A stretch of 64,000 bases of DNA from a bacterium (GTDB lineage Bacteria; Joyebacterota; Joyebacteria; Joyebacterales; Joyebacteraceae), in contig JAPEKQ010000004.1 of assembly GCA_029990205.1 (NCBI GenBank), forward strand, positions 5,109 to 69,108. The letters run 5' to 3'. The notes beneath the pieces are model-generated. The model made no database searches, had not been told where the DNA came from, and saw nothing but the letters and a program-made list of their open reading frames with translations. Made by a program: the position numbers and the translations under genes. Positions 537 to 44,982 of this stretch are shown here, in pieces (the stretch's first letter is position 1; each line of letters begins with the position of its first letter).

Positions 537-3500
537 CTACTTCAGGAGCGTCATCTTGTGCGAACCGCGATACTCGGGCGTCTCCATCGTGCAGAAGTAG
601 ACGCCGCTGCCCACGGACTCGCCGTACTCGTTCGTCCCGTTCCACACCACGGTGTGGCGGCCGGGCTCGACCACGCCATCGACCAGCGTCGTCACAACGC
701 GACCCGCCACGTCGAAGACGCGAATCGTCACGCGCGACTCGCTCGGCAGGTGATAGCCGACCGTCGTCACCGGGTTGAACGGGTTCGGGGTGTTCCGGAC
801 GAGCTTGAAACTCGCGGGGATGCCCTCGTAGCTGAGGCCCTCAAGGTCTGCCGTCAGCTCGTCGTTGGCCGCACCGCGGAGCGTGGCCGACGAGAAGTCG
901 ACCGTGTACGCCTCGTCCACGATCTGGAAGGTGAGCACCGCAACGTCACCCGAGCCGCCGATCGTCACGTCCGTGCCGAGCACGGCCAGATCGATCTGCG
1001 TACTGCGGGAGGTCGCGTCGCTCCAGAAGAACACATCGGCCACCGGCGCACTCATCTCGTCGCTCAGACCGGCCGCAATGAACTCAAGACCGTCAAACTC
1101 GAGTTCGGTTGAGAGTCCCTTGATCTCACCGAGGTTGCCCTCGAGACGGAGAGCCAGACTCAGCACACCATCACTCGAGCGATCGGCCTCGTTCAGAGCC
1201 AGTGCCAGTCCGCCGACACTCGGCTCGGCCAGGAACGGCACGATCCGCGGAGCGACAACGTCGTAGTTCATCGCGAAGATCATGAGATCTTCAAAGCTTA
1301 CGATACCGTCAGGAACAGGAACGCCCACCCGGCTATTGTCGTCGGTCGGGCCGACGTTGCACTCGGGCTCCCAACCAAGACCGCCCGTGCTCACGCCGTA
1401 TGTACCGCCCAAGATGTTGATGTCTGCGTCGTTGACACGGCCGTTGTAGCCACCAACACCTCCACCGAGCGCGCCAGCGACATCGCCCAACCAGTAGTTC
1501 GTGCACCGGTCACCGGTCCCGGCAGGCCCGTAGTTGCCAGCCTTATCACGTGCGAAGACACCGTAGTAAAGGATGCTCCGCTCACTGCCATCCGACGCGT
1601 AGGTGGCGCCATAGCTCCCCCCGGTGACGTTCTCGTCGACGAGGTCGCCATCACCCGCATCCGTCGGGTACGCTGGCGTGCCAGCCAGAGGGTACGTCGG
1701 GTATCCGGCGTCACCCCACGCGTTGCTCCTGAGCACGTACTCGTGGAAGTTGGCATCGTACGTCGTCGGACTGTCGGTCCATGTCAGGTCGGCCTTGTTG
1801 TGACCTGGAGCCGCGGCAAGGTCCGTCACAGCCACGGGCAGCGTGTTGTCCACGTTGACTGTGATCTCGTCGTACGACGTGTTCCCGAGGAGGTCGGTCA
1901 CCGTGACTCTGACAACCTGGGCCCCATCGGCACCAAGATCGGCGTCATCGAGGTTCCACGTCGCCGTGCCGGTCGCGTAAGTAGACGGCGCCACAGCAGT
2001 ACCGCCACCATCCAACAGCGTCGACAGGTTCGCCACGACCGTCACATCGTCGAGGTCTCCACATGCGTCCGTGACCGTCGCCTCGATCACAAGGTCGTTG
2101 CCGTCCCTTGCCCAGTTATCGAAGTACGGATTGTCAGGATTATCGACCGACAGCGTCGCGACAGCGGGAACCTCGGTATCGACCTCGATGGAAGCCCCAC
2201 TGGCATAGACACCCGACAGCGGCTGGTTGGCGTTGTCGCGGAAGAGGACACTCGTGATGCTGATATCGTCGCTCCCGCAACCCGCGGCGCTCAGATCGAT
2301 CGTGAAGAGCGTGGCGGGACCGGTAACGCCAGCCTGGTTTCCAAGCAACGTCCAGTCAACGGTGTGCGAAGCCGTGGTGCTGCCAACGCCGATATCACCA
2401 TAGTGCGTGAAGAAATCGTTGCCTGCTACGCCAGGGAAGATATCTCCAATGGCTACACCGTCCATCGACACATCGGCACCCCACGTGAAGGTGACCGAGA
2501 CCCCATAGATGAGGCCTGACGCCCCACCAAGGTAGTCGACAGATATCGTTTCGTCATCGTCGGTGTCGTTGAGCTCGATGTCATCCGGAACGCAGACGAT
2601 GTTCTCGCTGCCGGCCTTGCCGATCCACGGATCGAAGTCGACGAAGTCCGAAACCTCGCAGCCGAGACCACCCGTGTTGCTCGAGTGATACGGACCGGTC
2701 GCGTCGCCCCACCAGTTGCCCTCGGCGTCAACAGCTACTCCGTCATCGTTCCTGACGCCGTAGAGGTCTCCGAGCAGGCTGTTGTAGCTGAGGGACACAT
2801 CAGTGCCGGCAGGCAGGCCGCCATAGGATGCGCCGATGATATCGTAAACGCTGAGTGCGTGGTCGAAGCCCTTGACCGCGTTGCTGAGGATATCGATGTC
2901 CAGGTCATGGGCCCACGTGTAGCTATCGGCATAGTGCGAGATCTTCATGCCGGCCGCAGCCATTGTCCCGGCACCACCGGTGCCGCCCCCATCGACGCCA
3001 TTGCGAGCCACGGTTGTGTTGTAGAACCCGTCGCCGCCGACAGTGAACCCGATGCCGTACATGGCATCGGCGTAGGGAGCGCCTGTGAACGTCATCACGT
3101 TATCGGTCACGGAGATGTCGCACGCGAGGAGCGTCGCGTCGTAGGTGCGCAGATCGATCATCCCGACATACGCCCCAACATCTGTGTCCTGCGTGAAGGT
3201 GTTGTTGTTGATATCGAGGCCGTCGATGGAGTAGTCCTCCATGCCGTTCAGCCCGAAGATGAACCGGATCGCTGCGCTCCACCCCGTGTTCGTGAAGGTG
3301 TTGCCGCTGATGACGAAGTTCTCCACGGTCGAGTTGGCGCCGTAGTTCCATACGTACACGCCGCGCCCGTACTCCGTGAAGGTGTTGCCTGTCACGGAGA
3401 TGTTCCGCAGATCGAAGTCGTCGTCATCGCCATCGCCGATATACAGACCCGCGACGCAGGCGGTGTAGTCGGCCGGATCCACCGGGCCGAACGCGCACCC

Positions 3501-6065
3501 GGTCACGTCGAGGCCGTCGATGCCCGAACGAAGATAGATGCTCGTCCACATCTCGTTGAACGTGCAGTCCGTGATCGAGAAGTCACTCAGAGACAGGCTG
3601 TTGGGCGCGAAGATGCCGATGTTGCGCGTGTACACGCCAAGGGACGCAACAGACGCGTCAAACTCGCAGTCCGTGACCGTCAGACCGGCGAAGTCTCCCA
3701 TGAGGTGCACACCGTAGGTGTTCGGACCTGCGCCCGCGCCGAGGTTCGGGAAGTTCACCCGGGTCAGCGTCAGGTCGGCGCTCGAGTTGACCTGGATGCC
3801 CTCGGTCAACTCAGCCGGGTCGCTGATGGCCAGGTCCGAGATCGTGACGTCGTCAGCCGTCACATCGATGACCGGGTAGGCGCCAGGCTCGATCAGCGTC
3901 GCTGTCTCACCGGCCCCGATCAGACTGAGGGACTTGTCGATGAGGAGCTGCTCGGGGTAGGTACCGGCTGCCACATTGATCGTTGCGCCGGAGGTCGCTG
4001 CGTCGATCGCGTCCTGGATCGAGTCCTTCGTACCGAGCGGCATGGGCGACGTTCCCGGAGGCGCCGCGAACCACGGGCTGTAGTCCACGTTGTCCGTGAC
4101 CGCGTCACCAGCGCGTCCGGTTGTCGGACCGTCGGCGTCGTCCCACCAGTTGAGTTCAGCGTCGATGACCAACCCGTTGGTCGGCGTCCCGACGACCTGC
4201 ACTCCGTAATGTGCGAGAGGGTTGCCGAGGTGGCCATTGCCGTAGATGGCGTTGCCGGAACCGTTGATATCCGTGGCGCAGTCGTAGCAGGCATACTGGC
4301 CGCTAGAGGGAGGACTCTCGAACTGCGGGTTCCAGTAGTTCCCCTCGAGGTCCAGCATGATCCCGTTCCAGCCGTTGTCGTAGATCGCATTGTCATCGAT
4401 GAAGATGCTGTCGTTCTTGGGTCCCATGTAGATGCCGCACTTCTGATTGTCGTGGATGTCGTTGCCCACGATGGTCAGGTTGACAGGACCGTATGCGGTC
4501 AGCGGGTCGGAGACCTTGTCCGACGAGCCTCTGATCAGCTGGATGCCGTGTCCGTACTTCAGGAAGTCCGGGTCGTCACCCGGCAGACCGGTGCATCCGT
4601 AGATGTCGTTGTTGCTGATAACAAGGTCGGCGTAACCGCCGGCGGTCTCGATTCCCGCCCTGTGCGAACCGTAGATCTCGTTGTCGTCGATGACGGTTCC
4701 CGCCATAGACGCGGGGCCGGGGGCCCCGTAGGCGTAGTACGACGTCCACAGGAAGACGTTGTCGCCGTTGCCCTTGCAGTCGAAGATCTTGTTGTGTGAG
4801 AAGCTGCTGCTCTCGATACCGTCGTCACCGTACGGATGGTTCACGAGGTAGAGCCCCATGCGACCGTGTGTCCCGTCCTGGCTCACAACGTTCGTATTGG
4901 GTCCGACGATGTTGTTCTCGAACACGATGTTCTCGATGACGCCGGTGTGAGCGTAGACGCGGACGAGAGACGTGTTCTTGTTCGCCTCCGCCGCCAGCTC
5001 CTGCACGATGAAGCCCTTGAATGTCACGTCGCTCACATCGTAGATGTCGACGATGGCCGTGTAGCTTCCGGCCGGGTCGGGATGGCTGATGATCGTCTCA
5101 ACGCCCGGATCCCATGCGTAGTCTGCAGGTACCGTGTAGCCGTTCTTGTTGAGCGCGTGCGTCGCTCCGAGCATCGTCACCGGCTTCTCAACGAGGATCT
5201 CCTCGACATAGTGGCCGGCCGCGACATTGACGGTCCCGCCGTCCAGCACGGCATCGACGCCGTTCTGGATCAGGTCGAAGTGCGTGATGCCCCAGCCGGG
5301 AGTCGCCGACGTGAAGTCATCATCGACCCACACCTCGGGCGGAGCCGCAGGCGTCAGCGTCACCTGGTAGATGCCGCCGTCCCCAGCGATGATCTCGACA
5401 TCGAAGCCGCCGAACTGAAGCGGGATAGCGTCGCTGCCCCACGTCCAGTCCATGTCCCACCAGCCTGCGCCGGCGCCATGCGCGTAGCAGTCACCATCGT
5501 TGGCGTCCGGATCCGTCGGAAGCGTCCCCGTGTACGAGCCGACATCGTTCTCCGACGCGTACATGTTCGTCCAGTCCATCAGGCCGGACATCGGCGTTCC
5601 CTGATGCACGGACTTGTACTGAAGAGCCCAGGTCGTCCCGGTCAGCACGAGCTCGTAGTTGTAGTAGTCCGCGACATCCGGGTTCCAGAAGCCGCCCCAG
5701 GGCGGGCTCCCGGTTCCATCGTCCGGATAACCATCGTGAGGGTCCGACGTGCCGTACCCGATGGTGTACGTGTCGGTTCCGGAGCAGTTCCACGCACCCG
5801 TCCCGTAATACCCCTCGACGAATGCGCAACCGCCCGTCTTGGCATAGACATCGAATCCCCCGGCGGTGGAAATGGCTTCACCACCGCCGCCGACCGCGTA
5901 CCACGAGCCGGCTACGGCGTCGATCGTTCCTGTGTAGACGCCACCACCGGCGTCCGTCAGTGTTCCCTCGAACTCCATCGTGCTGCTGCCAACGGAGTTG
6001 GCCGAAGCGGGCGCAGCGATGATGATCGAGAGAATCAGCGCGAGTACCAATGCACTGGTCCGCAT
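537..6065 (-). CDS. Giant secreted protein of 1842 aa with right-handed parallel beta-helix (pectate-lyase-like) repeats and a C-terminal T9SS sorting domain.
   Basis: Start moved to the internal ATG at 6065 (MRTSALVLALILSIIIAAPASA, signal peptide), preceded by AGGAGGAG. Many NxxTFT/ISGNTF/VTGNTF beta-helix turn motifs. The C-terminus PNPFNPVTTVGYHLPSESRVTIRVFDVAGRVVTTLVDG...GSGVYFCTME...K is a FlgD Ig-like / Por-secretion tail. Confidence 0.85.
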   Translation of the reverse strand: MRTSALVLALILSIIIAAPASANSVGSSTMEFEGTLTDAGGGVYTGTIDAVAGSWYAVGGGGEAISTAGGFDVYAKTGGCAFVEGYYGTGAWNCSGTDTYTIGYGTSDPHDGYPDDGTGSPPWGGFWNPDVADYYNYELVLTGTTWALQYKSVHQGTPMSGLMDWTNMYASENDVGSYTGTLPTDPDANDGDCYAHGAGAGWWDMDWTWGSDAIPLQFGGFDVEIIAGDGGIYQVTLTPAAPPEVWVDDDFTSATPGWGITHFDLIQNGVDAVLDGGTVNVAAGHYVEEILVEKPVTMLGATHALNKNGYTVPADYAWDPGVETIISHPDPAGSYTAIVDIYDVSDVTFKGFIVQELAAEANKNTSLVRVYAHTGVIENIVFENNIVGPNTNVVSQDGTHGRMGLYLVNHPYGDDGIESSSFSHNKIFDCKGNGDNVFLWTSYYAYGAPGPASMAGTVIDDNEIYGSHRAGIETAGGYADLVISNNDIYGCTGLPGDDPDFLKYGHGIQLIRGSSDKVSDPLTAYGPVNLTIVGNDIHDNQKCGIYMGPKNDSIFIDDNAIYDNGWNGIMLDLEGNYWNPQFESPPSSGQYACYDCATDINGSGNAIYGNGHLGNPLAHYGVQVVGTPTNGLVIDAELNWWDDADGPTTGRAGDAVTDNVDYSPWFAAPPGTSPMPLGTKDSIQDAIDAATSGATINVAAGTYPEQLLIDKSLSLIGAGETATLIEPGAYPVIDVTADDVTISDLAISDPAELTEGIQVNSSADLTLTRVNFPNLGAGAGPNTYGVHLMGDFAGLTVTDCEFDASVASLGVYTRNIGIFAPNSLSLSDFSITDCTFNEMWTSIYLRSGIDGLDVTGCAFGPVDPADYTACVAGLYIGDGDDDDFDLRNISVTGNTFTEYGRGVYVWNYGANSTVENFVISGNTFTNTGWSAAIRFIFGLNGMEDYSIDGLDINNNTFTQDTDVGAYVGMIDLRTYDATLLACDISVTDNVMTFTGAPYADAMYGIGFTVGGDGFYNTTVARNGVDGGGTGGAGTMAAAGMKISHYADSYTWAHDLDIDILSNAVKGFDHALSVYDIIGASYGGLPAGTDVSLSYNSLLGDLYGVRNDDGVAVDAEGNWWGDATGPYHSSNTGGLGCEVSDFVDFDPWIGKAGSENIVCVPDDIELNDTDDDETISVDYLGGASGLIYGVSVTFTWGADVSMDGVAIGDIFPGVAGNDFFTHYGDIGVGSTTASHTVDWTLLGNQAGVTGPATLFTIDLSAAGCGSDDISITSVLFRDNANQPLSGVYASGASIEVDTEVPAVATLSVDNPDNPYFDNWARDGNDLVIEATVTDACGDLDDVTVVANLSTLLDGGGTAVAPSTYATGTATWNLDDADLGADGAQVVRVTVTDLLGNTSYDEITVNVDNTLPVAVTDLAAAPGHNKADLTWTDSPTTYDANFHEYVLRSNAWGDAGYPTYPLAGTPAYPTDAGDGDLVDENVTGGSYGATYASDGSERSILYYGVFARDKAGNYGPAGTGDRCTNYWLGDVAGALGGGVGGYNGRVNDADINILGGTYGVSTGGLGWEPECNVGPTDDNSRVGVPVPDGIVSFEDLMIFAMNYDVVAPRIVPFLAEPSVGGLALALNEADRSSDGVLSLALRLEGNLGEIKGLSTELEFDGLEFIAAGLSDEMSAPVADVFFWSDATSRSTQIDLAVLGTDVTIGGSGDVAVLTFQIVDEAYTVDFSSATLRGAANDELTADLEGLSYEGIPASFKLVRNTPNPFNPVTTVGYHLPSESRVTIRVFDVAGRVVTTLVDGVVEPGRHTVVWNGTNEYGESVGSGVYFCTMETPEYRGSHKMTLLK

Positions 6066-6299
6066 GCTCTTCTCCTCCTGGGCATGTGCGAGTAACCTCG
6101 AATGACGCGACTGCAGCGGCCCGCTCGTGACGCTCACGCGTCGACCGCCTTGCACCTCCCGCAGTGCTCAGCTTGTCATCGCTCCTCCTTCGCCGCTCCG
6201 AAGTCGCTGAACTCCGCTCTTGACGGGCCAGCTCGGTGCGTGTACATTCCCGAAGCACAAGAGCGGACATGCTCACGCCTCACGGTGTGATGCAGCCCC

Positions 6300-6479
6300 G
6301 CTTCTTGGCCGGGCGGCTGGACTGGGTGCCAACCTATCCTCCAGTCGCCCTTGTTATCGTTTCCATGCTGTGTTCTGGATCTCTCTCCACGTCCGCGGCG
6401 TTCCCCATCCTCACTGCCCGCCCCCCCACCCAGCTGCGAGACTGGGCGGGAGAGGCAGGCGTTTCCCGAGGGAGGAAAC
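6300..6479 (-). promoter_or_regulatory. Conserved structured 5' leader, copy 1. This is the 5'-most roughly 180 nt of a roughly 415-nt 5' UTR of the giant gene. It is a candidate cis-regulatory RNA or sRNA.
   Basis: About 75% identical to 15282-15455. At the inferred 5' end there is a GUUUCC-ucccucg-GGAAAC hairpin (6461-6479 on plus). A second hairpin, CCCAG-cugcgaga-CUGGG, has two covarying pairs in the other copy. G-tracts (GGGUGGGGGGGCGGGCAG...GGGG) are conserved. Confidence 0.55.
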
Positions 6480-6485
6480 ACTGTC

Positions 6486-6514
6486 ATTATACTGCCCGTC
6501 GCGAGCTATGTCAA
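6486..6514 (-). promoter_or_regulatory. Perfect sigma70 consensus promoter TTGACA-17 bp-TATAAT, copy 1.
   Basis: The minus strand reads TTGACAtagctcgcgacgggcagTATAATgacagtG. The -35 box is at 6514..6509 and the -10 box at 6491..6486. An AT-rich region lies upstream and conserved ATGTGCTTGTC / TGCAGTTAG boxes sit 40-90 bp further upstream. Confidence 0.7.
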
Positions 6515-6640
6515 TATTGATTGAACCACCATGAAACTTCACTCACTACACTACAGACATCTAACTGCAATAGATGGACAAGCACATAGGATGCATTTTG
6601 TCTAGTTCGAACACCCTTACTGACTGACCACCAGACAAAG

Positions 6641-6671
6641 ACGCCGACCCCCGCCATGAAGGTAAGGGTCG
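6641..6671 (-). terminator. Terminator hairpin after the GH5 gene (GCCGACCC-15 nt loop-GGGTCGGC, followed by GUCUUUGUCU).
   Basis: 8-bp GC stem about 37 nt past the stop at 6708, followed by a U-rich stretch on the transcribed strand. Confidence 0.5.
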
Positions 6672-6707
6672 GCGCTATTCTGGGCGTGCTTCACGGCGCG
6701 CGAGTGC

Positions 6708-8318
6708 TCAACGCGCAGCACGGATGTAGACGAGCTTGCACACGGCCTGCGCTGACTCGCTCCTGACAATGATGAAGTACACACCCGATGGCATGTTCGC
6801 ATCTGCACGGGGCCATGACAGGCAAAGGCGCTTCTCGCGCGCGCGACAACTCTCAACCACTCGGCCGCGCACGTCGACGATGTCAACACGACGACCTGCG
6901 TCCCGCTGCGGGAACTCGGCGGTGATCGTCGCGGGTCCGAGTGAGGGAGACGGAGAGACACTGAGAGATCCGCGACGCTCGTCGACACCCGGATCATCAT
7001 CCACCGATGTACCCAGCGCGATTCGACTCATCTCGTACGCATGTTCCGCCAGCACGGACAGCGTCGTCGTGTCATCGTCGTAGATGCTGTACCACCCCTG
7101 ACACTCGTGTGGCGGGTCGCCCACCCATGGGTCGCCAGGACTCCAGTGACCACCGGCGGGAACAAGTGGCCGTCCCTCCCCCGCCCAGGCCCAGACGTTG
7201 TCACCACACGCCGGCCCTCCACTCGCCGCTGATACCTCCACGAGTCCGTACAACAGACCGAGGAGCGAGTTCCGCCAGCTCGCGTCTCCCGACGGGTCGA
7301 ACGAACCGCCATCACGAGCGAGCCCGAACTCTTCGAGAACCAACGGTTTGTTGAGGAACTGCGCGTTGGCAATATGTGCCGAGAGGTAATCCTCTGCGGC
7401 TGCCGAGGCGGCCGGGAAGGTCGCCTCCGGATCGGACGGGTCAAACCACTCCCAGTTCTGGGGCCAGATGTGAACGGTTGCGTAATCGATGTCGGGACCG
7501 TCGTGGTTGTCGATGAAATCGAGCCCGTTCCACGATGGCCATGGCGTGTCTCCCTCACACCCGGTCGTCACCAGATGGTTCCCGTCGAGCCCCTTGATGT
7601 AGGCAGCGGTGTCGTCCAGCCAGGTATTGAATGCGGCTGCGTTGTTGTGGAAGCCGCGGGGCTCGTTGGCCAGTTCCCACGCCATGATCGTCGGCTCGTC
7701 TCTATAATAGAGGCCCGTGTACGGGTTGAGCCGCCCTGTGAGAAATGCGATGTGGTCCCTCAGGTCCTGCATCGCATCCGCATTCGAGTAGAAGTCGGAC
7801 GCGTAGTCCTGGTATGCATTCCAGTCCCCGCCTGGCTCCGGAGGAGGATACGGCACCGGACCGCCGCCGTTCCAACTCACGTACTGGGCCATGCCGCCGG
7901 ACCAGTGCCAGAAGTTCGTGACGCAGGCGACCGCCCTCATCCCCCGCTCATCCATCTCGCTGAGGAGGTAGTCGAGACCGTCGAGCACGTCCGGATCGTA
8001 CACCCCCGGCGCGGTCTGGAGCGGCGGCACGATGCGCCACGGTTCGGTGTCAGGTCCCTCGCTTCCGACCATGATGCGGAGGTTCGTCACGCCGAGCGAA
8101 CGCAACGTGTCGAGCTCGCGGCACAGGCGCTCGCGGTCGCCCCCTGTGCCCGCAGAACCAAGGTTCATCCCATACCAGTAGTTGACGCCGGCGTACAGGT
8201 ACGGCTCCCCGTTGAGCTCGAGCATGGTCCCTTCGGCCTCGACGAACCCCACGTTGTCGCCGGAGCACAGGCAGGCCATCGCCAACCAGACCAGCAGAGC
8301 AACACAGATGTATCTCAC
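6708..8318 (-). CDS. Secreted glycoside hydrolase family 5 enzyme (beta-mannanase-like) with a T9SS C-terminal sorting domain.
   Basis: Signal peptide MRYICVALLVWLAMACLCSG on a GTG start. GH5 acid/base motif WELANEPR and nucleophile motif LVLEEFG. C-terminal ...MPSGVYFIIVRSESAQAVCKLVYIRAAR tail. Confidence 0.8.
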   Translation of the reverse strand: MRYICVALLVWLAMACLCSGDNVGFVEAEGTMLELNGEPYLYAGVNYWYGMNLGSAGTGGDRERLCRELDTLRSLGVTNLRIMVGSEGPDTEPWRIVPPLQTAPGVYDPDVLDGLDYLLSEMDERGMRAVACVTNFWHWSGGMAQYVSWNGGGPVPYPPPEPGGDWNAYQDYASDFYSNADAMQDLRDHIAFLTGRLNPYTGLYYRDEPTIMAWELANEPRGFHNNAAAFNTWLDDTAAYIKGLDGNHLVTTGCEGDTPWPSWNGLDFIDNHDGPDIDYATVHIWPQNWEWFDPSDPEATFPAASAAAEDYLSAHIANAQFLNKPLVLEEFGLARDGGSFDPSGDASWRNSLLGLLYGLVEVSAASGGPACGDNVWAWAGEGRPLVPAGGHWSPGDPWVGDPPHECQGWYSIYDDDTTTLSVLAEHAYEMSRIALGTSVDDDPGVDERRGSLSVSPSPSLGPATITAEFPQRDAGRRVDIVDVRGRVVESCRAREKRLCLSWPRADANMPSGVYFIIVRSESAQAVCKLVYIRAAR

Positions 8319-8407: not shown

Positions 8408-9019
8408 TTACCTGTACATCGCCTTGATCTGAGACCACGTGCTCGGAGCGACCGGCAGTGCCAGATCGCACTCGACGCTGATCCAGTCGAAGTACATCTG
8501 CCCGTAGGTGGACCAGCCGGACCAATGGCTCGCCGTGGAAACGAAGTAGAGCACACAGGGACCGCACATGCAGACGTCCTGAACCGTCGTGATGTGCCAC
8601 TGAAGCTCGGTGTTGAGCTCGTCGCCCGGATAGCTGTACACAAGCGTGCCCGGAGGTGAAGCGCCCATGTCGTAGACATAGAGATCGAACGCATCGACGG
8701 CCTGGCCTTCGAGATGCCTGAGCGTGATGCACCTCGGGTTGACATCGGGCTCCGTGCCGAAGTCGAGGAGGATGAGCGCCGCGATGTCGCCGTCTCCGAG
8801 CGACTCGGGACAGTCGATGCCCCGGCAGACCACAACGTCCCCGTACGGCCCCGGGGGATCGTGGTGATCACCGTACTGGACATCGCCCCAACCGACCATG
8901 TTGTGACCAAGCTCTGACGCAGGCACTCCAATGTCGACCATATCCATCACATCGGCCGACACTGGTACAACGACCACGGTAGCAAGCAATGCTATGAGGA
9001 TGGCGAGGAATCGTCTCAT
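8408..9019 (-). CDS. Small cysteine-rich secreted hypothetical protein (about 200 aa).
   Basis: Start at the ATG at 9019 (MRRFLAILIALLATVVVVPVSA) with a GGGAGGTG Shine-Dalgarno sequence. No recognisable domain. Confidence 0.6.
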   Translation of the reverse strand: MRRFLAILIALLATVVVVPVSADVMDMVDIGVPASELGHNMVGWGDVQYGDHHDPPGPYGDVVVCRGIDCPESLGDGDIAALILLDFGTEPDVNPRCITLRHLEGQAVDAFDLYVYDMGASPPGTLVYSYPGDELNTELQWHITTVQDVCMCGPCVLYFVSTASHWSGWSTYGQMYFDWISVECDLALPVAPSTWSQIKAMYR

Positions 9020-9073
9020 GACAACACCTCCCGTCTTCTCAACAGACCTGGCGGGGCGCACATGCGTGGGCCC

Positions 9074-9667
9074 CTACTCCTTCTCTCTCGACGACCATCC
9101 GGCGACGCCGACCACGTCTTCCGTGAGCATCTCGACCCCGAAGGCTTCCGCGTGGCCACTCACCTCCAGGAAGAGACTCTGCTCACCGCATTTCCCGTTG
9201 CCCTCGAGAAACACATCGGCCGCATCGACCTGCCGTTCGCTGACGAGCTTGCCGTCCGGGGTGAGAAGTCGGCACCGCGCGGTCGAGTTCGCGAGCTGCT
9301 GCTCGCGCCCCTTGGGGAGTGTTAGACGCACGATGACACCCCACTTCACGTCGTTCGATGTCACAACGATCTCCGCGGCCGCCACGCGCGGGGCAGGGTC
9401 CTCGACCGAGGTGGTCTGTACGCCGGCCATGTAGCGCGGATTCGGGTCGAACGGGCTCGCGAATCGAACCTTGACGGACCTGGGTATGCTGACGCCGACT
9501 CCCGCGGTAGCACTGAGAGGCTCGCCCGACGCCCACTCCTGGCCGATGCCGGGAAGGCAGACGAGGGTGACCGCCAGCATCGGCACCAGGAGGCCTGCGA
9601 GCGACCGCCGCCCACCGGGCCCAGCCCGAGTCCGGGACGGCATCCGCTGTCTGATACCACTGATCAT
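9074..9667 (-). CDS. Hypothetical secreted protein or lipoprotein (about 197 aa).
   Basis: An AAGGAGAG Shine-Dalgarno sequence lies 6 nt upstream of the ATG at 9667. The hydrophobic segment LAGLLVPMLAVTLVCLPG may be a lipobox. Confidence 0.55.
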   Translation of the reverse strand: MISGIRQRMPSRTRAGPGGRRSLAGLLVPMLAVTLVCLPGIGQEWASGEPLSATAGVGVSIPRSVKVRFASPFDPNPRYMAGVQTTSVEDPAPRVAAAEIVVTSNDVKWGVIVRLTLPKGREQQLANSTARCRLLTPDGKLVSERQVDAADVFLEGNGKCGEQSLFLEVSGHAEAFGVEMLTEDVVGVAGWSSREKE

Positions 9668-9722
9668 GTGCACCTCTCCTTCCGCTTGGCATCACCACCG
9701 GTCACTGCTGGTCGATGTCCTC

Positions 9723-11375
9723 TCACTCGAGGAGACCGGCGAGCTCCATCGGATCGATCATAGCGTGCGGCGTGACGAGAACGAGCATCTCGCTCTGCTC
9801 CCGCTCGATGGTCGTGTGTCCGAACAGCGCGCCAAGAACTGGGATGCGGCCGAGCAACGGGATACGGTTCTCCTTCGTACGTTCGAACTCCGAGAGCAAC
9901 CCGCCGATCAGGATCGACTCACCGTTCCCGACGCACGCCCGCGTCTCGATCTCTCGCACGCTCGTGACGGGCAGATCGTTCACGCCCGACGCGCGGACGT
10001 CGCTGACCTCAACGAAGATGTCGGTCGTGATGTCGGACGACTCGCCCACGTATGGCGTGATCCTGAGCGTGATCCCCGTCGCGATCTTCTGGAGCGTGTA
10101 GTAGGCATAGCTGACCGACCCGCTCAGCAGCGAGTAGTACGCCTCGGTCCCGACACGGATCCGTGCCTCCTGACCGTCGAGCGTGGCAAGGCGCGGGTTG
10201 GCGCGGACGTTCGCCGCCCCGTTCGCCTCGAGCGCCCGCACGGCGGCGCCGATGTTCGTGACAGCGTCGACGCCGTCCAGACCGGTATCGGTGAGCATCC
10301 CGATGAAGGACGAGTCGAGCATGGCCGGGGCGAGCTTGGCGAGACGGAACGTCGCGCCTCCTTCGCTCCCCAGGACCTCCCAGTCGATGCCCCACTCGCG
10401 CGTGACGTCGCTGTTCACCTCGACGACAAGCGCCTCGATGGTCACCTGACGAGGCGGTCGATCGATCGCCGCGACGTCCCGAAGGAACGCGCTCGTCACC
10501 TCCGGCGGCGCCGTCAGCGAGAGGATGTTCCCGCCGGCTGGGTCGACCCGCACGTACCGCTCGTACGACGGCGGCAACAGCCTCGCAATCTCCTCGGCCA
10601 GGAGGTGACGCGGTCGGATCTCGACGGTCGCAGCCAGCAACATCGACCCCGAGTCCCTCGGATCGGTGACGCCGACGAGGTAGTACCCGTCCATCCACCG
10701 ATACCCCAGCCCGAGCGGCACGGCCAGATGACTCAGACACTGCTCGAGCGGGACGTCGTCGAACTCCGCGGTGACCAGTCCCCGGACGCCCTTCGCCGCG
10801 AAGATGGGAATGCGGGTCTGCGCCGACACGTCTGCCAGTACCTGGAGGATATCGGTCTCGTAGAACATGTTGGTGACGCGCGCGTTCTCGCTGTCGTTGA
10901 CGCTTCCGGCGACCCCGGCGCCTGTCCCGGGCGTGCGGGCCGGACCGACCTCTGCCACGGAGGCCCTGCCGCACGCCACAGGCCGGTGCGCATCCGCGAT
11001 CGCGTCGAGTTCCATCCGACCGGGAAGCACCGACCACTTCCGGGGGTAGTTCTCCCGAAGCAGATGGAAGCTCAGCGCGGCCTTCGATGTATCACCGCCG
11101 GCCAGCTCGGCCTCGCCAAGGAGATAGAGCACATCGGGCATGACCCGGTACGGTGTGTTGTCCTCGAGGATCCCGCGCAGAAGCCTTGACGTCTCCGCGT
11201 AATCGCCCTGGCGATATCGCGACGCCGCGGCGCTGAGATCCGCCTCGACCGTCCCGCCGTGTCCCAGGAGCATCTCCGCCTCGTCGTGCAGCGGCGTCTG
11301 CGGAGCGCATCCCAGGAGGCAGGCGACCGCGAACACTGCGAGCGTGGAAGCTGTGTGTGTGCGCCGGGCATTCAT
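9723..11375 (-). CDS. Outer-membrane secretin of the PilQ/GspD family. It is a lipoprotein with an N-terminal TPR-like region and an STN domain.
   Basis: Lipobox ACLLGC. STN-like VTNMFYETDILQVLADVSAQTRIPI. Secretin C-domain motifs NPRLATLDGQEARIRVG, ITPYV, VREIETRACVGNGESILIGGL, ENRIPLLGRIPVLGALFG, LVTPHA. Confidence 0.85.
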   Translation of the reverse strand: MNARRTHTASTLAVFAVACLLGCAPQTPLHDEAEMLLGHGGTVEADLSAAASRYRQGDYAETSRLLRGILEDNTPYRVMPDVLYLLGEAELAGGDTSKAALSFHLLRENYPRKWSVLPGRMELDAIADAHRPVACGRASVAEVGPARTPGTGAGVAGSVNDSENARVTNMFYETDILQVLADVSAQTRIPIFAAKGVRGLVTAEFDDVPLEQCLSHLAVPLGLGYRWMDGYYLVGVTDPRDSGSMLLAATVEIRPRHLLAEEIARLLPPSYERYVRVDPAGGNILSLTAPPEVTSAFLRDVAAIDRPPRQVTIEALVVEVNSDVTREWGIDWEVLGSEGGATFRLAKLAPAMLDSSFIGMLTDTGLDGVDAVTNIGAAVRALEANGAANVRANPRLATLDGQEARIRVGTEAYYSLLSGSVSYAYYTLQKIATGITLRITPYVGESSDITTDIFVEVSDVRASGVNDLPVTSVREIETRACVGNGESILIGGLLSEFERTKENRIPLLGRIPVLGALFGHTTIEREQSEMLVLVTPHAMIDPMELAGLLE

Positions 11376-13003
11376 CGGAGTCCCTCCGGCACGACCTCAG
11401 TGCTCGTGAACGAGGCGTCCGCCGTGAGCGGGGCCTCCTCGTCTCCGTTCTGCTCGAGATCGACCTTGACCGTGAAGATGCCCTCGGCGACGAGCGGCAG
11501 TGACATCCGGAACTTCCTCTCGCCCCGCGGCATCACGCGCTCCCAGCTCTTCTTCCCGATGGCCATCTCGGCAACGAGATCGCCCTGCTCGGAGTGGAGC
11601 GATACGCGTCCGCGCACCTCGCCGACACCGTCGCCCTCGTTCGCGATCGTGAGCACGGCGCTCCCGGGATTCGACTCTGGGTGCGAACGGACAAGATCGA
11701 GACTCTCGACCCGGAGCGAGGCGCGACCTCCCCCTCTCGGCTTGATGATGATAAGGGCCCCGGCGTCGTAGACCGTCCGCCACTCGCCGGACTCCTCGTG
11801 AGCTCGCCCCACGAACCGCACACCTCGTGTCACCGTCTCGTCGAACTCAGCATCACGGTCCATGCTCACCGTGGCCCGGACGGCCGAGCTGACACGCGGC
11901 CCGACGACGAGCGAGTCCGGCGCAACCTCGACGGCCAGTCCATCTATGCGGGCCGGTGAATCGGCGTAGGTCCATCGTCCGTCGGCTTCCAGTCTCGCAT
12001 CGCCCACGACGACGTCGAGCCGAATCTCCTCGTCACCCATGTTGCTGACTCGAATCGGGACTGATCGCACGGCGCCTGGAGCGAGGTCGATCTCGTGAAC
12101 GGGCTGTTCTATCCAGAGATCGGTCCCGACCTCCGACTTCGCTCCGCTGACTTCCGCCGCTGACGTTGTTCGCTCCATTCCGGCCACTGAGAGGACGAAC
12201 TCGTTCCTCGACTCGCGCCGCTCACCCAGTTCGAGCCTCCCCACGGTTCGATATGTTCCGTGGACGAGCCGCGGCGCGTGCGCCCTGAGAGTGATGCTCT
12301 GTCCCGGATAGAGCTCGAACGGCCGACCGTCGCTCCGGTACGGCAGCTCGACTCGTTCGGGGAAGCCTCCCGACTCGGGGTACATCAGTACATCGCCACG
12401 GAGCTCGCTCACCCATACCCCGGTGTTCCGAACCTCGATGACCAGTTCGCGTCCGCCGTCCCTCGACCAGCCGAGCCCGATTCCCTCTATGCCGAGTTCC
12501 AGCGGTCCGCTCGACCGGACGCGCACGAGGACTTCGACGTTGACAGTCGGGACGACCGTCGCTGAGAGCTGGGCCGTGGGGCTGTCGGGACGGAGGTTGA
12601 TCACGAGAAACGCCGAGTACTCGCCGAACGCGTCCTCGGGAACACGAACCGTGACGGGCACGTCTCGCTGTTCGACTCCATCGAGCGCGAGTTCGGGCTC
12701 GACGACGATCCAGTCGGCGGCGGAGCGTGCACCCCCGCCGACCGCGATGGCCTCCTTGTGGCCGACCTGTGACTGTTTGAGATCCTGGATCGCGATGTCG
12801 AAGTGAGCGCGCCTGCCGGGCATGCTCCCGGCGATCCGGAAGCTCCCGTCCCAGGTCTGGCCCGGTGTCGCATCGGCTATGAGTTTGAGCGGTCCGATAC
12901 CAATGCCACCCTCGCGGACCTCTGCCTCCTGGGCGACGACGCCGGTCGAGAGCGCCGCGATCAGGAGCAGTACAAGGCAAAGAGAGAGATGGGATGACTT
13001 CAC
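11372..13003 (-). CDS. Secreted protein of 543 aa built from about four beta-sandwich repeat modules. Its stop overlaps the secretin start in an ATGA arrangement.
   Basis: GTG start with a strong AAGGAGGAGGG Shine-Dalgarno sequence. Signal peptide MKSSHLSLCLVLLLIAALSTGVVAQ. Internal repeats of about 130 aa. Function unknown. Confidence 0.65.
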   Translation of the reverse strand: MKSSHLSLCLVLLLIAALSTGVVAQEAEVREGGIGIGPLKLIADATPGQTWDGSFRIAGSMPGRRAHFDIAIQDLKQSQVGHKEAIAVGGGARSAADWIVVEPELALDGVEQRDVPVTVRVPEDAFGEYSAFLVINLRPDSPTAQLSATVVPTVNVEVLVRVRSSGPLELGIEGIGLGWSRDGGRELVIEVRNTGVWVSELRGDVLMYPESGGFPERVELPYRSDGRPFELYPGQSITLRAHAPRLVHGTYRTVGRLELGERRESRNEFVLSVAGMERTTSAAEVSGAKSEVGTDLWIEQPVHEIDLAPGAVRSVPIRVSNMGDEEIRLDVVVGDARLEADGRWTYADSPARIDGLAVEVAPDSLVVGPRVSSAVRATVSMDRDAEFDETVTRGVRFVGRAHEESGEWRTVYDAGALIIIKPRGGGRASLRVESLDLVRSHPESNPGSAVLTIANEGDGVGEVRGRVSLHSEQGDLVAEMAIGKKSWERVMPRGERKFRMSLPLVAEGIFTVKVDLEQNGDEEAPLTADASFTSTEVVPEGLR

Positions 13004-13039
13004 GATGACCCTCCTCCTTGGGAGTCCGCGAGAGAGGCG

Positions 13040-13069
13040 GGAGGCGCCGGGACGAAACCCGGCGCCTCC
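13040..13069 (-). terminator. Perfect 12-bp GC hairpin (GGAGGCGCCGGG-acgaaa-CCCGGCGCCTCC) between two genes.
   Basis: It lies between the stop at 13081 and the Shine-Dalgarno/GTG start of the repeat protein at 13003. It could be a terminator or an attenuator. Confidence 0.5.
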
Positions 13070-13080
13070 GGAACCTCCAC

Positions 13081-13815
13081 CTACGGACTCGTGAACAACA
13101 CATTCACCACCGTGCTGTAGTCGCCGCCCGCATCAAGCATCCCGTTACGGTGGATGCGGGCCAGGAACTTCATAGTACCCTCGACACCCGGGCAGAGCGG
13201 CCCGAGCACATAGTGTGTCGCCGGGGGCTCGCAGGGAATCGCCTGCTGCATGGGGTAGACGCCGTAGACCGGGTCGTTGTAGCCAAGCACGCCCGGACTG
13301 TCCAGATGCAGGTAGGTGCCCCAACCGTCGTTCGGGATCGTGCCCACGCCGGTCCAGACATCCTCCACCATCAGAGGAGCAGCGCACATCGTCAGCCAGG
13401 TCGGGATGTAGCAATCCCCGCAGTCCGGATCGACCGCGTGGAGGTCGCCGTTCACGGTGACATCCATCGACAGCGGATTGTTGGACCTGAAGAAGATCAC
13501 CGCGCCGTCGAATGACTCGTAGTACATGCCCATGTTGCTGGTGTAGTACCCACCGCCGGCCCAGGGGTTCAGCGGGCCCTTCCCGTCCGGGTCCGGACAG
13601 GCGGAGTAGCCGAGCCCCTCCAGCTGGGCGCAGTACCAGTCAGCGTTGTCGTCGAAGACGATGTCGACGTCCTGCCACTCGATCTGGACATAGCAGTTCA
13701 GCATGAGGTCGATCGTGATGTCACCGCTGGGGCTGCCGTCCCACACTGTGTCGTACGCCGCAGCCGAAAGCGTGAGCGCCACGACAGCCATGATTGCCAC
13801 GATAACGCGCAGCAT
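13081..13815 (-). CDS. Cysteine-rich secreted hypothetical protein (244 aa).
   Basis: ATG at 13815 (MLRVIVAIMAVVALTLSAAA) preceded by AAGGAGAG. No recognisable domain. Confidence 0.6.
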   Translation of the reverse strand: MLRVIVAIMAVVALTLSAAAYDTVWDGSPSGDITIDLMLNCYVQIEWQDVDIVFDDNADWYCAQLEGLGYSACPDPDGKGPLNPWAGGGYYTSNMGMYYESFDGAVIFFRSNNPLSMDVTVNGDLHAVDPDCGDCYIPTWLTMCAAPLMVEDVWTGVGTIPNDGWGTYLHLDSPGVLGYNDPVYGVYPMQQAIPCEPPATHYVLGPLCPGVEGTMKFLARIHRNGMLDAGGDYSTVVNVLFTSP

Positions 13816-14120
13816 GATAAGCTCTCCTTGAGGTTGCTCGTCGCACGCAACCCATTGGTCCGCCTCGGTCTCCATTCAGGGAAAGGGATGCGTCCTGTCA
13901 GGGTCTCGTCCCTTGCCGGGGGTGGCGGATCACCCCGGTTTCCCCGCCCGGCTCAGTCCTCGGGGAGCCGGTCCGTCTGTGCGCGGCCCGAGGCCGCGAC
14001 CAGCACGCCATGGCAGCTCCTTTCGACGCTCTGGATCCCGCACTGGCGGAGACCGCTCCCAGGAATACCGCTCCCGCCTCCACCGTTCCGAGATTGTCCA
14101 GACATGCGAAGGTCGCCGAC

Positions 14121-15155
14121 CTACTGCGGCGACCCGACCAGGTGTAGCTCGCTGATGTACTCGCCCGCGACATCGGTGACGGTCACCTCAAGCGCCATCC
14201 GGAATCTCGCGGAGAGAACACCCCGTTCATCGTATCCAGACATCAGACAATTGCTGTCGCCCACAAGGGTCCATGGACCGGGCTCCCCACCGGCGTCAAG
14301 GACCGCCCACTCGACTCGCTCAAGAGCGATCTGGTCCTCGTCGGAGACGAAGGGCGTCCCCTCGAGCAGCAGCACCCACTGCTCTTCGTTCGTCGCGACA
14401 ACGACCTCCAGGTCAGGCTCCACGTAGTACCGGCCTGACCCGGGTCCCGTTTCGATGTCGAACTCCGTCTCGGAGGTCATGACCATCGTGAGGGACCCGA
14501 CGTCCATGATCACTGGAACCGTCAGCCGCGGTCCGAAGGCGCTGCTGAGACTCGCGGCGCTACCAGTCACGACCCGCAGTGCGCCGGGGTGCTCGATCTC
14601 CGAGTAGTGGTCCTCGGGCAGGACAACGGGCGTGAGATGGAGAAGTCCCTGATAGAGACCCGCTTCGTCCGTCCACTCGGGACGCGCCTGCACTTCGAGC
14701 CACAGGTTCTCCGCGGGCGCAGGACCCTGCCCGCGGGCAACGATGACCCCACCAGCCATGCTCACGAACTCTCCGCCCGTATCCGCTGACCGCACCATCA
14801 GGCAACCACCGTCGATGGGTCCGCCAGGACCCGCGGTGGGCTCATACTCGACCCGGACCGCCCAGTTCGGGAGCGGCGACGCTACGCTGAATGCCAGCGA
14901 ACCCAGAAGAGCCGGCTGCACAGGAATCCCACCTTGGGGCGGCAGCACGACCTCATCGTCCAGAGACAGGAACTCCGCATCCGTCGTGATCCACACCATC
15001 CCACCCGACTGCACCGGCGTACCCGCCTGGGACGCGGGGTTCTCCTCCAACCCTCGAGCCGTACAGACTCCTGCCGCCACCAACACGAGGAAGAGCACCA
15101 CCAGGTGTCGACAGACACGTCTCAGCAGTGCTCTCATAGCAACGGTTCCAGACAT
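14121..15155 (-). CDS. Secreted hypothetical protein of about 344 aa, sitting behind the second copy of the promoter-leader module.
   Basis: Start set at the ATG at 15155 (MSGTVAMRALLRRVCRHLVVLFLVLVAAGVCTA) with a GGTGAGG Shine-Dalgarno-like sequence. ATG 15137 is an alternative. Confidence 0.55.
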   Translation of the reverse strand: MSGTVAMRALLRRVCRHLVVLFLVLVAAGVCTARGLEENPASQAGTPVQSGGMVWITTDAEFLSLDDEVVLPPQGGIPVQPALLGSLAFSVASPLPNWAVRVEYEPTAGPGGPIDGGCLMVRSADTGGEFVSMAGGVIVARGQGPAPAENLWLEVQARPEWTDEAGLYQGLLHLTPVVLPEDHYSEIEHPGALRVVTGSAASLSSAFGPRLTVPVIMDVGSLTMVMTSETEFDIETGPGSGRYYVEPDLEVVVATNEEQWVLLLEGTPFVSDEDQIALERVEWAVLDAGGEPGPWTLVGDSNCLMSGYDERGVLSARFRMALEVTVTDVAGEYISELHLVGSPQ

Positions 15156-15281
15156 ATTCCTCACCTTTCCCGCTTGCTCCGCTACCTCCATGCAATAATT
15201 CCACTTGCCTTCTCGGCTCCATGCAGGCACATTGTACGAACAAGGAGCGCGGCCCTGGTCCTTGCGGACCGGGTGAGCCAT

Positions 15282-15455
15282 GCTTCTGCCCGGGCGACTG
15301 GATGGCTGCGAATCCATCACCAGTCGCCCGCTTTTATGCTATCCGCATGTGATCGTGTTTCTCTCCACGCACGCGATGTTCCCTGCCCATCTTGCCCGCC
15401 CCCCGTCCGGCTGCGAGACCGGACGGAAGGGCAGGCGTTTCCCGAGGGAGGAAAC
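15282..15455 (-). promoter_or_regulatory. Conserved structured 5' leader, copy 2 (candidate cis-regulatory RNA).
   Basis: About 75% identical to 6300-6479. It has the same GUUUCC-ucccucg-GGAAAC hairpin (15437-15455). Its second hairpin, GUCCGG-cugcgaga-CCGGAC, differs from copy 1 at two base pairs, and both changes keep the pairing. Confidence 0.55.
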
Positions 15456-15461: not shown

Positions 15462-15490
15462 ATTATACTGCGTGACACCCGATATGTCAA
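15462..15490 (-). promoter_or_regulatory. Perfect sigma70 consensus promoter TTGACA-17-TATAAT, copy 2.
   Basis: The minus strand reads TTGACAtatcgggtgtcacgcagTATAATgactcc. An AT-rich tract and conserved boxes lie upstream. Confidence 0.7.
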
Positions 15491-15578
15491 TCTAGAAACA
15501 GTATATAATTATCAGTTCAACATTACATCCATCTAACTGCATACTATACATCTATATCGACAAGCACATCAGACATCG

Positions 15579-15596
15579 TTTGTGGAACGCCACAAA
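15579..15596 (-). terminator. Hairpin UUUGUGG-cguu-CCACAAA about 85 nt downstream of preA.
   Basis: 7-bp stem. An analogous UUUGUCU...AGACAAA hairpin sits at the equivalent position in copy 1 of the repeat module. Confidence 0.35.
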
Positions 15597-15680
15597 GAAG
15601 CCCGTTCACCCCCAGAACAGACAAATCGACCCCGACATTGTCTGTCGAGGCCGATCTGTGTGGCAGTCGCTGTGTGACTC

Positions 15681-27444: not shown

Positions 27445-27537
27445 ATGCCTCAATCCAAGAGAGCGCCGCACTTCATCGTGTCGACGCTCTCCAGTGTGTC
27501 ACTTCTGTTGTCACCTGCGCAAGACTGATGGGCAGTA

Positions 27538-29997: not shown

Positions 29998-30009
29998 TGT
30001 GCCTTCCCC

Positions 30010-30810: not shown

Positions 30811-30921
30811 CGTTCTCCCCCCTGTATGGGTCCGGATTGCTCGCGCCGGCAACGGCGCGTCCGCGCGCCGGTGGAGGCGCGGTGGGACGTTCCGCACACG
30901 CGGTGCGGTCGGTCGGTGTCG

Positions 30922-32157: not shown

Positions 32158-32188
32158 GTGTTCCCCCTTGCGTCTGACTCCGGCTGCG

Positions 32189-33016: not shown

Positions 33017-33060
33017 GATCTCTCCTGCGGTCGCCGCGCGGCCCGAGGGCCGTGCGCGGT

Positions 33061-34820: not shown

Positions 34821-34834
34821 CGTCCTCTCCCCTC

Positions 34835-44840: not shown

Positions 44841-44982
44841 TCGAGACTCCTCAGACGGGCCGCCACGCACGGCGGCGATGCATCGAAACCGGAGGGGCGG
44901 AGCCACATGCGCCACCCCACTGGGGGATGTGGTGGCCCTCCTCCGGTCCTGCCGTTGCAGTGATTGTCATTTTGGTGGGAAA

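Follow-up and report, generated by a model that had tools for sequence, protein, structure and literature searches.

The mgtA and mgtCBR leaders of Salmonella combine a sensing structure with a short upstream open reading frame (uORF), and ribosome occupancy is thought to set read-through or mRNA fate. The GEMM-I, or cyclic di-GMP-I (c-di-GMP-I), riboswitch consists of two side-by-side hairpins, one with a GNRA loop, and is found, often in multiple copies, at adhesin, pilus, and secretion genes. In phage HK022, the put RNA comprises a pair of stem-loops downstream of strong promoters; the EAR element of Bacillus lies within its operon. 5' stabilizers (the ompA-type hairpin, the cry3A STAB-SD, and also S-layer leaders) give rise to long-lived, abundant mRNA. 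The leaders of Bacteroides capsular polysaccharide operons employ UpxY and ops elements with pause hairpins (PMC11685472), and a LoaP-dependent leader occurs in Bacillus velezensis (PMC12691694). We analyzed a 64,000-nucleotide stretch of bacterial DNA (assembly GCA_029990205.1, contig JAPEKQ010000004.1, positions 5,109–69,108; hereafter the window), the minus strand of which carries two copies of a module, A (~6590–6200) and B (~15570–15190), each composed of a promoter and a structured 5' leader. In one clade of Candidatus Eisenbacteria, leaders of this kind stand at the head of long transcripts that encode giant secreted β-helix proteins or a secretin operon.

Like the UpxY and LoaP leaders, the leaders described here are long, paralogous, hairpin-containing 5' leaders of surface-product operons that would act after initiation, and Bacteroides belongs to the same superphylum (Fibrobacterota-Chlorobiota-Bacteroidota, FCB) as the Eisenbacteria. 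However, in the UpxY and LoaP systems the cognate NusG paralog is the first gene, and non-template DNA or a small hairpin is recognized. Here no NusG-like gene was found among the window genes scanned, and the conserved element is a covarying, two-helix RNA of ~130 nucleotides that is followed by a uORF. That these leaders form a real structured RNA family is very likely. There is firm support for a conserved structured RNA that forms part of the same transcripts as a defined set of surface and secretion genes and lies 5' of them. We favor, by a modest measure, the reading that the modules are paralogous copies of a lineage-specific, multicopy, cis-acting structured 5' leader RNA with a regulatory role after initiation. 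As a family of RNA the leaders are new, within a category that is known, that of structured cis-regulatory leaders; the way in which their features are combined is unusual.

Modules A and B are 73.1% identical over 279 bp (blastn, 6569–6294 versus 15541–15276; E = 4e-31), in agreement with the duplication noticed in a previous sequence-only reading of the window. No third copy was found in the window by blastn, and a covariance model (R1, described below) likewise yields only two matches, at 170 and 48 bits. A 26-nucleotide block directly 3' of the −10 hexamer, GTTTCCTCCCTCGGGAAACGCCTGCC, is identical in A (6479–6454) and B (15455–15430); its expected count in the control is 0, even at ≤3 mismatches. 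Both regions fold more stably than shuffled controls (z = −2.1 and −4.4), and the comparison of A with B by itself provides three compensatory pairs in the second hairpin. A 103-amino acid open reading frame (6176–6487) overlaps leader A and was rejected as a gene because its frame is lost in copy B through a 1-nucleotide indel; frame-shifting indels between the copies rule out a conserved open reading frame. No transfer RNA or transfer-messenger RNA was detected by ARAGORN.

The core of the leader is composed, in order, of an A-rich linker, helix P1, a 2–4-nucleotide joiner, helix P2, UG...AAYAUAC, 15–20 variable nucleotides, and GUCAAG. In leader A, P1 (6311–6350) has the sequence GGGCGACUGG-AGGAUAGGUUGGCACCCAGU-CCAGCCGCCC, and P2 (6258–6307) is a long imperfect stem, CAAGAAGCGGG...CCGCUCUUG, whose cap, CACACC-GUGA-GGCGUG, contains a GNRA loop. 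The 3' part of this core (6219–6248) consists of AAUGUAC (6248–6242), a variable segment, and GUCAAG (6224–6219). The core of leader B (15204–15329) has P1 at 15329–15292, P2 with a GCAA loop at 15288–15241, ACAAUGUGC at 15235–15227, and GGCAAG, a variant of GUCAAG, at 15209–15204; it is matched by the covariance model at 15188–15337 (48.3 bits, E = 1.3e-10). The conserved transcribed part had been placed within ~175 nucleotides ending at ~6290. It reaches instead to at least 6219 in A and to 15204 in B, which leaves P2, AAYAUAC, and GUCAAG partly or wholly outside those earlier limits, and a conserved Shine-Dalgarno sequence (SD) with a uORF follows farther on, at 6189–6168.

The basal 10 bp of P1 are invariant across the family (consensus arms GGGCGACUGG...CCAGYCGCCC), while the apical part is variable and the loop has 6–8 nucleotides; the arms are spaced 17–21 nucleotides apart, and position 14:43 is A-U, A.C, or, in L065, G-C. 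P2 has ~20 bp with mismatches, and 19 of its 20 pairs have changed on both sides among 28 copies. A GNRA tetraloop caps P2 in 15 of the 28 (GUGA in 11). The columns for AAYAUAC are conserved, and those for GUCAAG are near-invariant. In a model-guided alignment, 86.5% of the cells pair, as compared with 73.1% in shuffles, and 22 of 35 pairs show changes on both sides. The covariation score is 0.309 versus 0.126 for shuffled alignments (reached by 0 of 500) and 0.05–0.07 for slid registers. P1 and P2 were recovered independently by RNAalifold from plain MAFFT alignments of each group, and the strand is fixed by G-U pairs and by the weakness of reverse-strand matches. A covariance model could thus be built, as had been proposed, and its covariation is strong. 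When all 26 copies were aligned together with MAFFT alone, P2 was misaligned and RNAalifold recovered only P1; the per-group folds and the model-guided alignment took the place of this approach.

Several further elements of structure were considered for the core. An all-against-all column scan for additional helices or pseudoknots in the 3' part returned mostly G/U noise. A pair between the P1 loop and the P1-P2 joiner (columns 30:53) was rejected, as it is broken by the sole informative within-group change (L003A), and so was a pairing of the segment after P2 with the nucleotides preceding GUCAAG, which is weak and differs in register between groups. By eye, neither CsrA-type GGA loops nor K-turn motifs in P1 were consistent across groups. 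Rfam 15 gave 0 matches at the gathering score for the window and nine related loci; at E ≤5–10 there were only scattered chance matches (microRNAs and similar), with no family recurring across copies. Over both kinds of threshold, these searches covered the window and 16 related loci. The sequence-only reading had recognized no known riboswitch class in what it took for a structured leader behind a strong promoter, and these searches concur.

The family was traced in relatives through proteins, sequence patterns, and structure. For the protein encoded downstream of copy B, 15 homologs were found, all of them unannotated. On related contigs the order is a PreA-like gene, leader B, genes for proteins of 355, ~245, and 543 amino acids, a secretin gene, genes for 197- and 203-amino acid proteins, a GH5 gene, leader A, and the gene for a giant β-helix protein with a FlgD_ig tail; the order within the leader-B unit is conserved in L003, L004, and L063. 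Searches with nhmmer found the module at both syntenic positions in relatives, in the same orientation. In an alignment of seven leaders, the 5' region is not recognizably conserved in L004, a distant metagenome-assembled genome (MAG) of Candidatus Eisenbacteria; the downstream segment is near-identical (GCGGGCGACUGG...CCAGYCGCCCGG) and is followed by conserved blocks that end in GUCAAG.

Scanning the pattern GGGCGACTGG-N14-26-TCCAGNCGCCCG over one genome per species produced 45 stretches. About 18 of these, from 12 species genomes labeled Candidatus Eisenbacteria or 'bacterium', share flanking conservation. The other matches (in Zixibacteria, actinobacteria, and other GC-rich genomes) were dismissed as chance, having no flanking conservation and lying for the most part inside coding-like sequence. 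Another 12 stretches came from metagenomes scanned with a stricter pattern. R1, which was built from six A1-type sequences with P1 and P2 assigned by hand, recovered 28 distinct copies, all in Candidatus Eisenbacteria or unclassified MAGs, and the two modules of the window are therefore not an isolated pair. By exact pattern there are 1–4 copies per genome, with four in CSMAG_509. Family members sit upstream of genes for giant signal-peptide β-helix proteins or of the secretin operon, a small set of surface and secretion genes such as had been suspected from the two copies in the window. The motif is absent from the leader of a distant operon-protein homolog (L063, 52% identity) and from those of giant-protein N-domain homologs (L066–L071, 43–60% identity), which have long leaders and in some cases strong promoters. 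Since these distant homologs of the served proteins do not have the motif, the family is confined, as judged from these searches, to one GC-rich clade.

Might the repeated unit be a gene for a trans-acting small RNA (sRNA), or an element acting at the level of DNA (an operator, an invertible promoter, or a mobile remnant), that lies upstream of these genes by chance? The unit recurs within single genomes and comes with its own strong promoter; in DNA, the arms of P1 make a perfect inverted repeat, and the C-rich CCUCCC loop of the window's lineage looks like an anti-SD seed region. However, scans revealed no intrinsic terminator inside either window leader and none after the core, and all complete copies checked but one (L018) lead into a same-strand gene with no other promoter evident, making a free-standing sRNA, as had been suggested earlier, unlikely. 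The 17–21-nucleotide spacing of the P1 arms and the A.C and G-C variants fit RNA rather than a dimeric operator, and the compensatory changes in P2 are at the RNA level. No inverted-repeat pair of ≥9 nucleotides brackets either promoter as an invertible segment; the sole pair that spans promoter B (15108–15117 and 15639–15648) lies in the downstream gene and the upstream terminator, with no equivalent at copy A. Scans for inverted repeats and protein domains found neither terminal repeats at the modules nor a transposase nearby, and the positions are syntenic across species; the mobile-element explanation, which had been allowed for earlier, is thus disfavored. Taken together, this group of explanations is exceedingly improbable.

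Both modules are preceded by terminator-like hairpins. One (CGCCGACCC...GGGTCGGCG, 6630–6674; inverted repeat I7, 9/9 complementary), with a T-rich tail, stands at the end of the upstream GH5 gene and shows that module A opens a new predicted transcription unit. The other, with a T-run, lies at 15600–15650, 3' of the upstream PreA-like gene, and module B likewise opens a new predicted transcription unit behind it.

The only other feature that is family-wide downstream of the core is an SD with a start codon. In leader A (6168–6203), the hairpin CUUCG-GAGCGG-CGAAG (6203–6188) abuts the strong SD AGGAGG (6189–6184), behind which is a tiny uORF, AUG ACA AGC UGA (Met-Thr-Ser; 6179–6168). The main-gene ATG is at 6065, ~100–120 nucleotides from this conserved SD, and the leader from ~6479 measures ~414 nucleotides, matching an earlier estimate of ~415. 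The SD and start codon occur at group-specific fixed offsets after GUCAAG in all 15 copies of types A, C, and D in which the scan found one. They follow 21 of 31 pattern matches (a few non-family loci included), as compared with 14% of shuffles. The sequence at this place differs by group (A1, GGAGGAGCGAUG; A2, GGAGGGCGAUGAUCC; C, GGAGGGAGGUGAUC; D, GAAGGAGG...RUGAU), as does the distance from the core, which is 5–85 nucleotides. The uORFs are 1–22 codons in length with no peptide conserved across groups, and that of L053 is simply AUG-UAG. In B2 operon leaders, the SD and AUG at this place, 5–17 nucleotides after GUCAAG, are those of the main gene; in leaders of the B1 type, of which window copy B is one, 36–80 nucleotides separate GUCAAG from the main SD. 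The SD-abutting hairpin covaries in A1 orthologs (CCCGCCG/CGGCGGG and UUCGA/UCGAA).

A potential alternative pairing exists in A-type leaders. The segment CAAGAGCGGA (6222–6213), which starts inside GUCAAG, is complementary at 10 of 10 positions to the 3' strand of P2 (6267–6258; inverted repeat I4), and mimics the P2 5' strand. The complementarity is 7–9 nucleotides in other A1 copies and ~5 nucleotides in A2, and is absent from the B and C types.

Such features bring to mind a riboswitch for a metabolite or second messenger, in which the P1-P2 core with AAYAUAC and GUCAAG would be the aptamer and the variable sequence beyond it (hairpin, SD, and uORF or main start) the expression platform. 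The architecture is riboswitch-like, with stems that covary, unpaired nucleotides that are highly conserved, a position in the 5' untranslated region (UTR), and 3' flanks that vary from group to group in the manner of expression platforms. The GNRA loop of P2 lies beside a helix with CU:AG steps, which might serve as its receptor. Genomes can have multiple copies, in front of genes with related functions, and riboswitches of the c-di-GMP type classically target adhesin, pilus, and secretin genes. The 7–10-nucleotide alternative pairing in A-type copies also suits a switch. GEMM-I is similar in having paired side-by-side hairpins, a GNRA loop, a like gene association, and often several copies per genome. 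However, its covariance model has no match here at any threshold, the helix order and conserved nucleotides differ, and the sequence-invariant stem is unlike anything in GEMM-I. More generally, no Rfam riboswitch matched even at permissive thresholds, a 10-bp sequence-invariant stem is unusual for an aptamer, and neither a terminator nor a general SD-sequestering alternative was found. The family is also restricted to a very narrow clade; sister lineages have close homologs of these genes but no motif before them. We regard a riboswitch as unlikely.

In the mechanism that we propose for a cis-acting leader RNA, regulation would occur after transcription initiation, with the P1-P2/GUCAAG core serving as a recognition platform for a trans-acting factor. 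A dedicated RNA-binding protein is favored for this role, because a 10-bp stem that is invariant in sequence points to sequence-specific recognition. The state of the core would decide ribosome loading at the start codon 5–85 nucleotides downstream, where a 1–22-codon uORF begins in leaders of giant-protein genes and the main gene begins in some leaders of the operon. Loaded ribosomes, along with stable hairpins near the 5' end, would protect the long, otherwise untranslated leader and its mRNA from premature termination or decay, and several surface and secretion genes would in this way be expressed together. Ribosome loading is favored because the SD and start codon are the only other family-wide downstream feature and because the uORF peptide is irrelevant. 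The particular mechanism, comprising factor binding, ribosome loading, and transcript survival, is tentative. The resemblance to the mgtA and mgtCBR leaders lies in a long structured 5' UTR with a very short open reading frame between a conserved structure and the main gene; there is no similarity in sequence or structure to these leaders, and the signal here cannot reside in the peptide or its codons because the uORF can be AUG-UAG. A bolder version, in which the core represents a new class of aptamer or RNA polymerase-modifying RNA (a signaling-molecule riboswitch that turns on the entire surface program of an uncultured phylum, with giant adhesin-like proteins and their secretin machine, or a put-like RNA with a direct effect on the elongation complex) with a minimal start-stop uORF as its read-out, is doubtful.

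A number of points weigh against a regulatory leader of this kind. The distance from core to start codon varies over 5–85 nucleotides, and B1-type leaders, window copy B among them, have no SD directly after the core. No SD-sequestering or other mutually exclusive structure is consistent across groups, the alternative pairing being restricted to A types, and SD accessibility in whole-leader partition functions showed no consistent pattern. No candidate binding protein for the core was identified. Transcription start sites (TSSs), which throughout are positions derived from the promoter sequence, as well as leader integrity and uORF translation, are deduced rather than observed. The covariation counts rest on a model-fitted alignment of related sequences, and the clade that supplies all of the sequences is narrow. 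The exact P1 pattern yielded most of the copies, and the invariance of P1 is therefore in part an effect of ascertainment; this concern is offset by copies found through protein synteny, which carry the same P1.

The genes behind the leaders encode surface or secretion functions. Downstream of leader A, the main SD AGGAGGAG (6079–6072) and the ATG at 6065 begin the gene for an 1842-amino acid β-helix protein with a signal peptide (537–6079, minus strand), which has a FlgD_ig domain or type IX secretion system (T9SS)-type C-terminal domain; the Por_Secre_tail match is borderline (22.2 bits versus a cut-off of 23). The products of type A, C, and D loci are paralogous proteins with a signal peptide and right-handed β-helix repeats. 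Complete ones are 1776–1842 amino acids in length, most others run off their contigs, and a FlgD_ig or T9SS-type tail is present in those whose sequence extends to the C-terminus. Behind leader B is a transcription unit at 8408–15166 on the minus strand, whose genes we infer to form a single operon. It starts with the SD AGGUGAGG (15166–15159) and a 344-amino acid membrane or secreted protein (ATG 15155), continues with 244- and 543-amino acid proteins, a GspD/PilQ-type secretin (9723–11375), and 197- and 203-amino acid proteins, and is followed on the same strand by the GH5 gene (6708–8318). The 344-, 244-, 543-, 197-, and 203-amino acid proteins had no match at or near curated cut-offs in Pfam or NCBIfam (E ≤5). 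The unit may encode an uncharacterized outer-membrane export or assembly system.

Great length and surface or secretion function are common to all of the linked transcription units, and such units are typically served by RfaH/ops, UpxY, and LoaP and by the put and EAR RNAs. In processive antitermination, the nascent RNA or a NusG-type factor acting at the leader would modify RNA polymerase to finish the 5.5-kb genes and the 7–9-kb operon. Two adjacent stem-loops behind a strong promoter would suit this mode of action, and a sequence-invariant hairpin suits recognition by a factor or by RNA polymerase. However, proteins behind the leaders and window genes scanned (most called open reading frames, 537–57382) had no NusG_N or KOW match; among these window genes, no regulator, NusG paralog, or cyclic-nucleotide enzyme was found. 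The likeness to put and EAR is limited to their being cis-acting structured RNAs for long transcription units, with no homology in Rfam searches, in which no family whatever matched, and no internal terminators that need bypass were identified. Antitermination also leaves the conserved SD and uORF unexplained, and it is quite unlikely.

Each module has a σ70-type consensus promoter. Promoter A (6486–6514) is composed of TTGACA (6514–6509), a 17-nucleotide spacer, and TATAAT (6491–6486), with a predicted TSS at ~6479; promoter B (15462–15490) has TTGACA at 15490–15485, the same spacer, and TATAAT at 15467–15462, with a predicted TSS at ~15455. The exact pattern TTGACA-N17-TATAAT occurs in the window only at the two modules and in none of 100 shuffles, confirming the perfect promoters reported before. 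Upstream sequence is sufficient in 24 copies; in most of them a promoter lies 107–136 nucleotides before P1, and 15 match the hexamers at ≥10 of 12 positions; forms among the family are TTGACA-17-TATAAT, TATGCT, or TATACT. These are canonical TTGACA-17-TATAAT/TATGCT promoters at a fixed distance in a lineage of the FCB superphylum. Bacteroidota promoters are of the −33/−7 type, unlike these −35/−10 ones.

Upstream of the −35 hexamer, the DNA is AT-rich, with a GC content of 38% in A (6515–6600) and 32% in B (15491–15580) versus 65.6% for the whole window. The boxes that had been reported here are present in both copies: ATGTGCTTGTC at 6587–6577 and 15569–15559, and TGCAGTTAGATG at 6569–6558 and 15541–15530. 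The upstream blocks are kept in orthologous leaders of related MAGs as well, with ~100 bp 5' of the promoter conserved blockwise, and the boxes are candidates for an UP element or a transcription-factor site. The activator site that had been suggested earlier amounts to this conserved DNA. In A2- and C-type loci (e.g., L004, ~11525–11540), a conserved block that adjoins the −35 hexamer, CCATTGTCAAGATT, includes GTCAAG, the hexamer of the RNA motif. This sharing is due either to chance or to a common protein site. The unrelated L066 leader contains GTCAAG twice within 25 nucleotides.

Between the predicted TSS and P1 is a 5' domain of 100–130 nucleotides, which always contains a long hairpin and is wholly different in sequence between lineages. 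The 5' domain of leader A (6351–6479) is lineage-specific, according to folds and to a consensus fold of 10 relatives. It has a GUUUCC...GGAAAC hairpin (6479–6461), a long hairpin, H2 (6460–6416), supported by six compensatory pairs in the 10-sequence consensus fold, a small hairpin (~6399–6387), and an A-rich linker, GAUAACAA (6358–6351), that precedes P1. The first hairpin competes with a long-range helix to 6412–6400, in which GUUUCCUCCC pairs with GGG..GGGAAC ~65 nucleotides downstream and which the consensus fold of the 10 relatives favors. The sequence-only reading had described the GUUUCC hairpin, a second hairpin, and G-tracts; these belong to the 5' domain of the window's lineage, other lineages having different hairpins in place of GUUUCC...GGAAAC, and the core common to the family had gone unrecognized, as had the SD and uORF that follow it.

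A predicted long hairpin lies within a few nucleotides of the presumed 5' end in nearly every group, as in 5' stabilizers, and the leader might on this account be passive: a consensus promoter, 5' stem-loops, and an SD-like stabilizer would give an abundant, long-lived mRNA without signal-dependent regulation. Perfect or near-perfect promoters fit this, as does a strong conserved SD far upstream of the main start, and the products are likely to be abundant surface proteins. The ompA and STAB-SD elements are similar in just these respects, with a stem-loop near the 5' end, an SD-like site well before the main start codon, and probable abundant secreted products. They differ in requiring no sequence-invariant internal domain common to paralogs, and here the SD precedes a conserved start codon. 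Stabilizers need structure only, whereas P1, AAYAUAC, and GUCAAG are conserved in sequence even though the 5' domains of paralogs have been completely replaced. In addition, the same core heads an operon for secretin machinery of low abundance. A passive leader is very unlikely, although it accounts, like a riboswitch or antitermination, for some of the observations.

The 5' domain and the core appear to have evolved differently. The 5' domain of leader B (15330–15455) is 80% identical to that of A, as compared with 66% for the cores, and the B core of the window is closer to its ortholog (79% identity) than to its paralog. In the L004 lineage, the 5' domains (2555–2661 and 11567–11683) are 54% identical to each other. 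From these identities, the core appears to track orthology. Homogenization between paralogs, on the other hand, seems to have affected the promoter and 5' domain, a pattern suggestive of gene conversion or concerted evolution in this part of the module.

No member of Candidatus Eisenbacteria is in culture, and no regulatory RNA of the group is described; a full-text literature search found no paper on the subject. The family offers a first handle on the control of its largest and probably most abundant surface proteins, and ties genes of unknown function, including an uncharacterized secretin operon, into one regulon. As an orphan motif it is well supported, with 28 copies, strong covariation, and invariant unpaired nucleotides, and its design of a sequence-invariant stem, a GNRA-capped covarying stem, and a minimal uORF is unusual. 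Canonical −35/−10 promoters are also shown in a phylum of the FCB group. In practical terms, metagenome assemblies appear to be broken up by the repeat, and such loci can be flagged with the covariance model.

A second giant protein is encoded in the window, at 39510–44915 on the minus strand. It has 1801 amino acids, with a Glucodextran_C domain, Ig-like domains, and a FlgD_ig tail, and its gene carries no leader module. Because this FlgD_ig-tailed protein has none, the leader is specific and not a general trait of large cargo genes. The gene adjoins a glycogen/starch utilization cluster (GH57, GDE_C, CBM48, and an ATP-binding cassette sugar transporter; ~24955–36952).

The contigs L003 (start), L017 (end), L054, L058, and L065 (start) break inside or beside the leader, and giant genes were mostly recovered as fragments; the multicopy P1 region appears to break metagenome assemblies. 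The exceptional contig L018 (2247–2387, 2840–2966, and 3062–3250) has a full copy directly after a gene end with no recognizable promoter. An extra R1 match on this contig marks a second, divergent copy in which a promoter is present and GUCAAG is absent, followed by a 62-amino acid open reading frame with four cysteines that presumably resembles the Com-type zinc ribbon of phage Mu.

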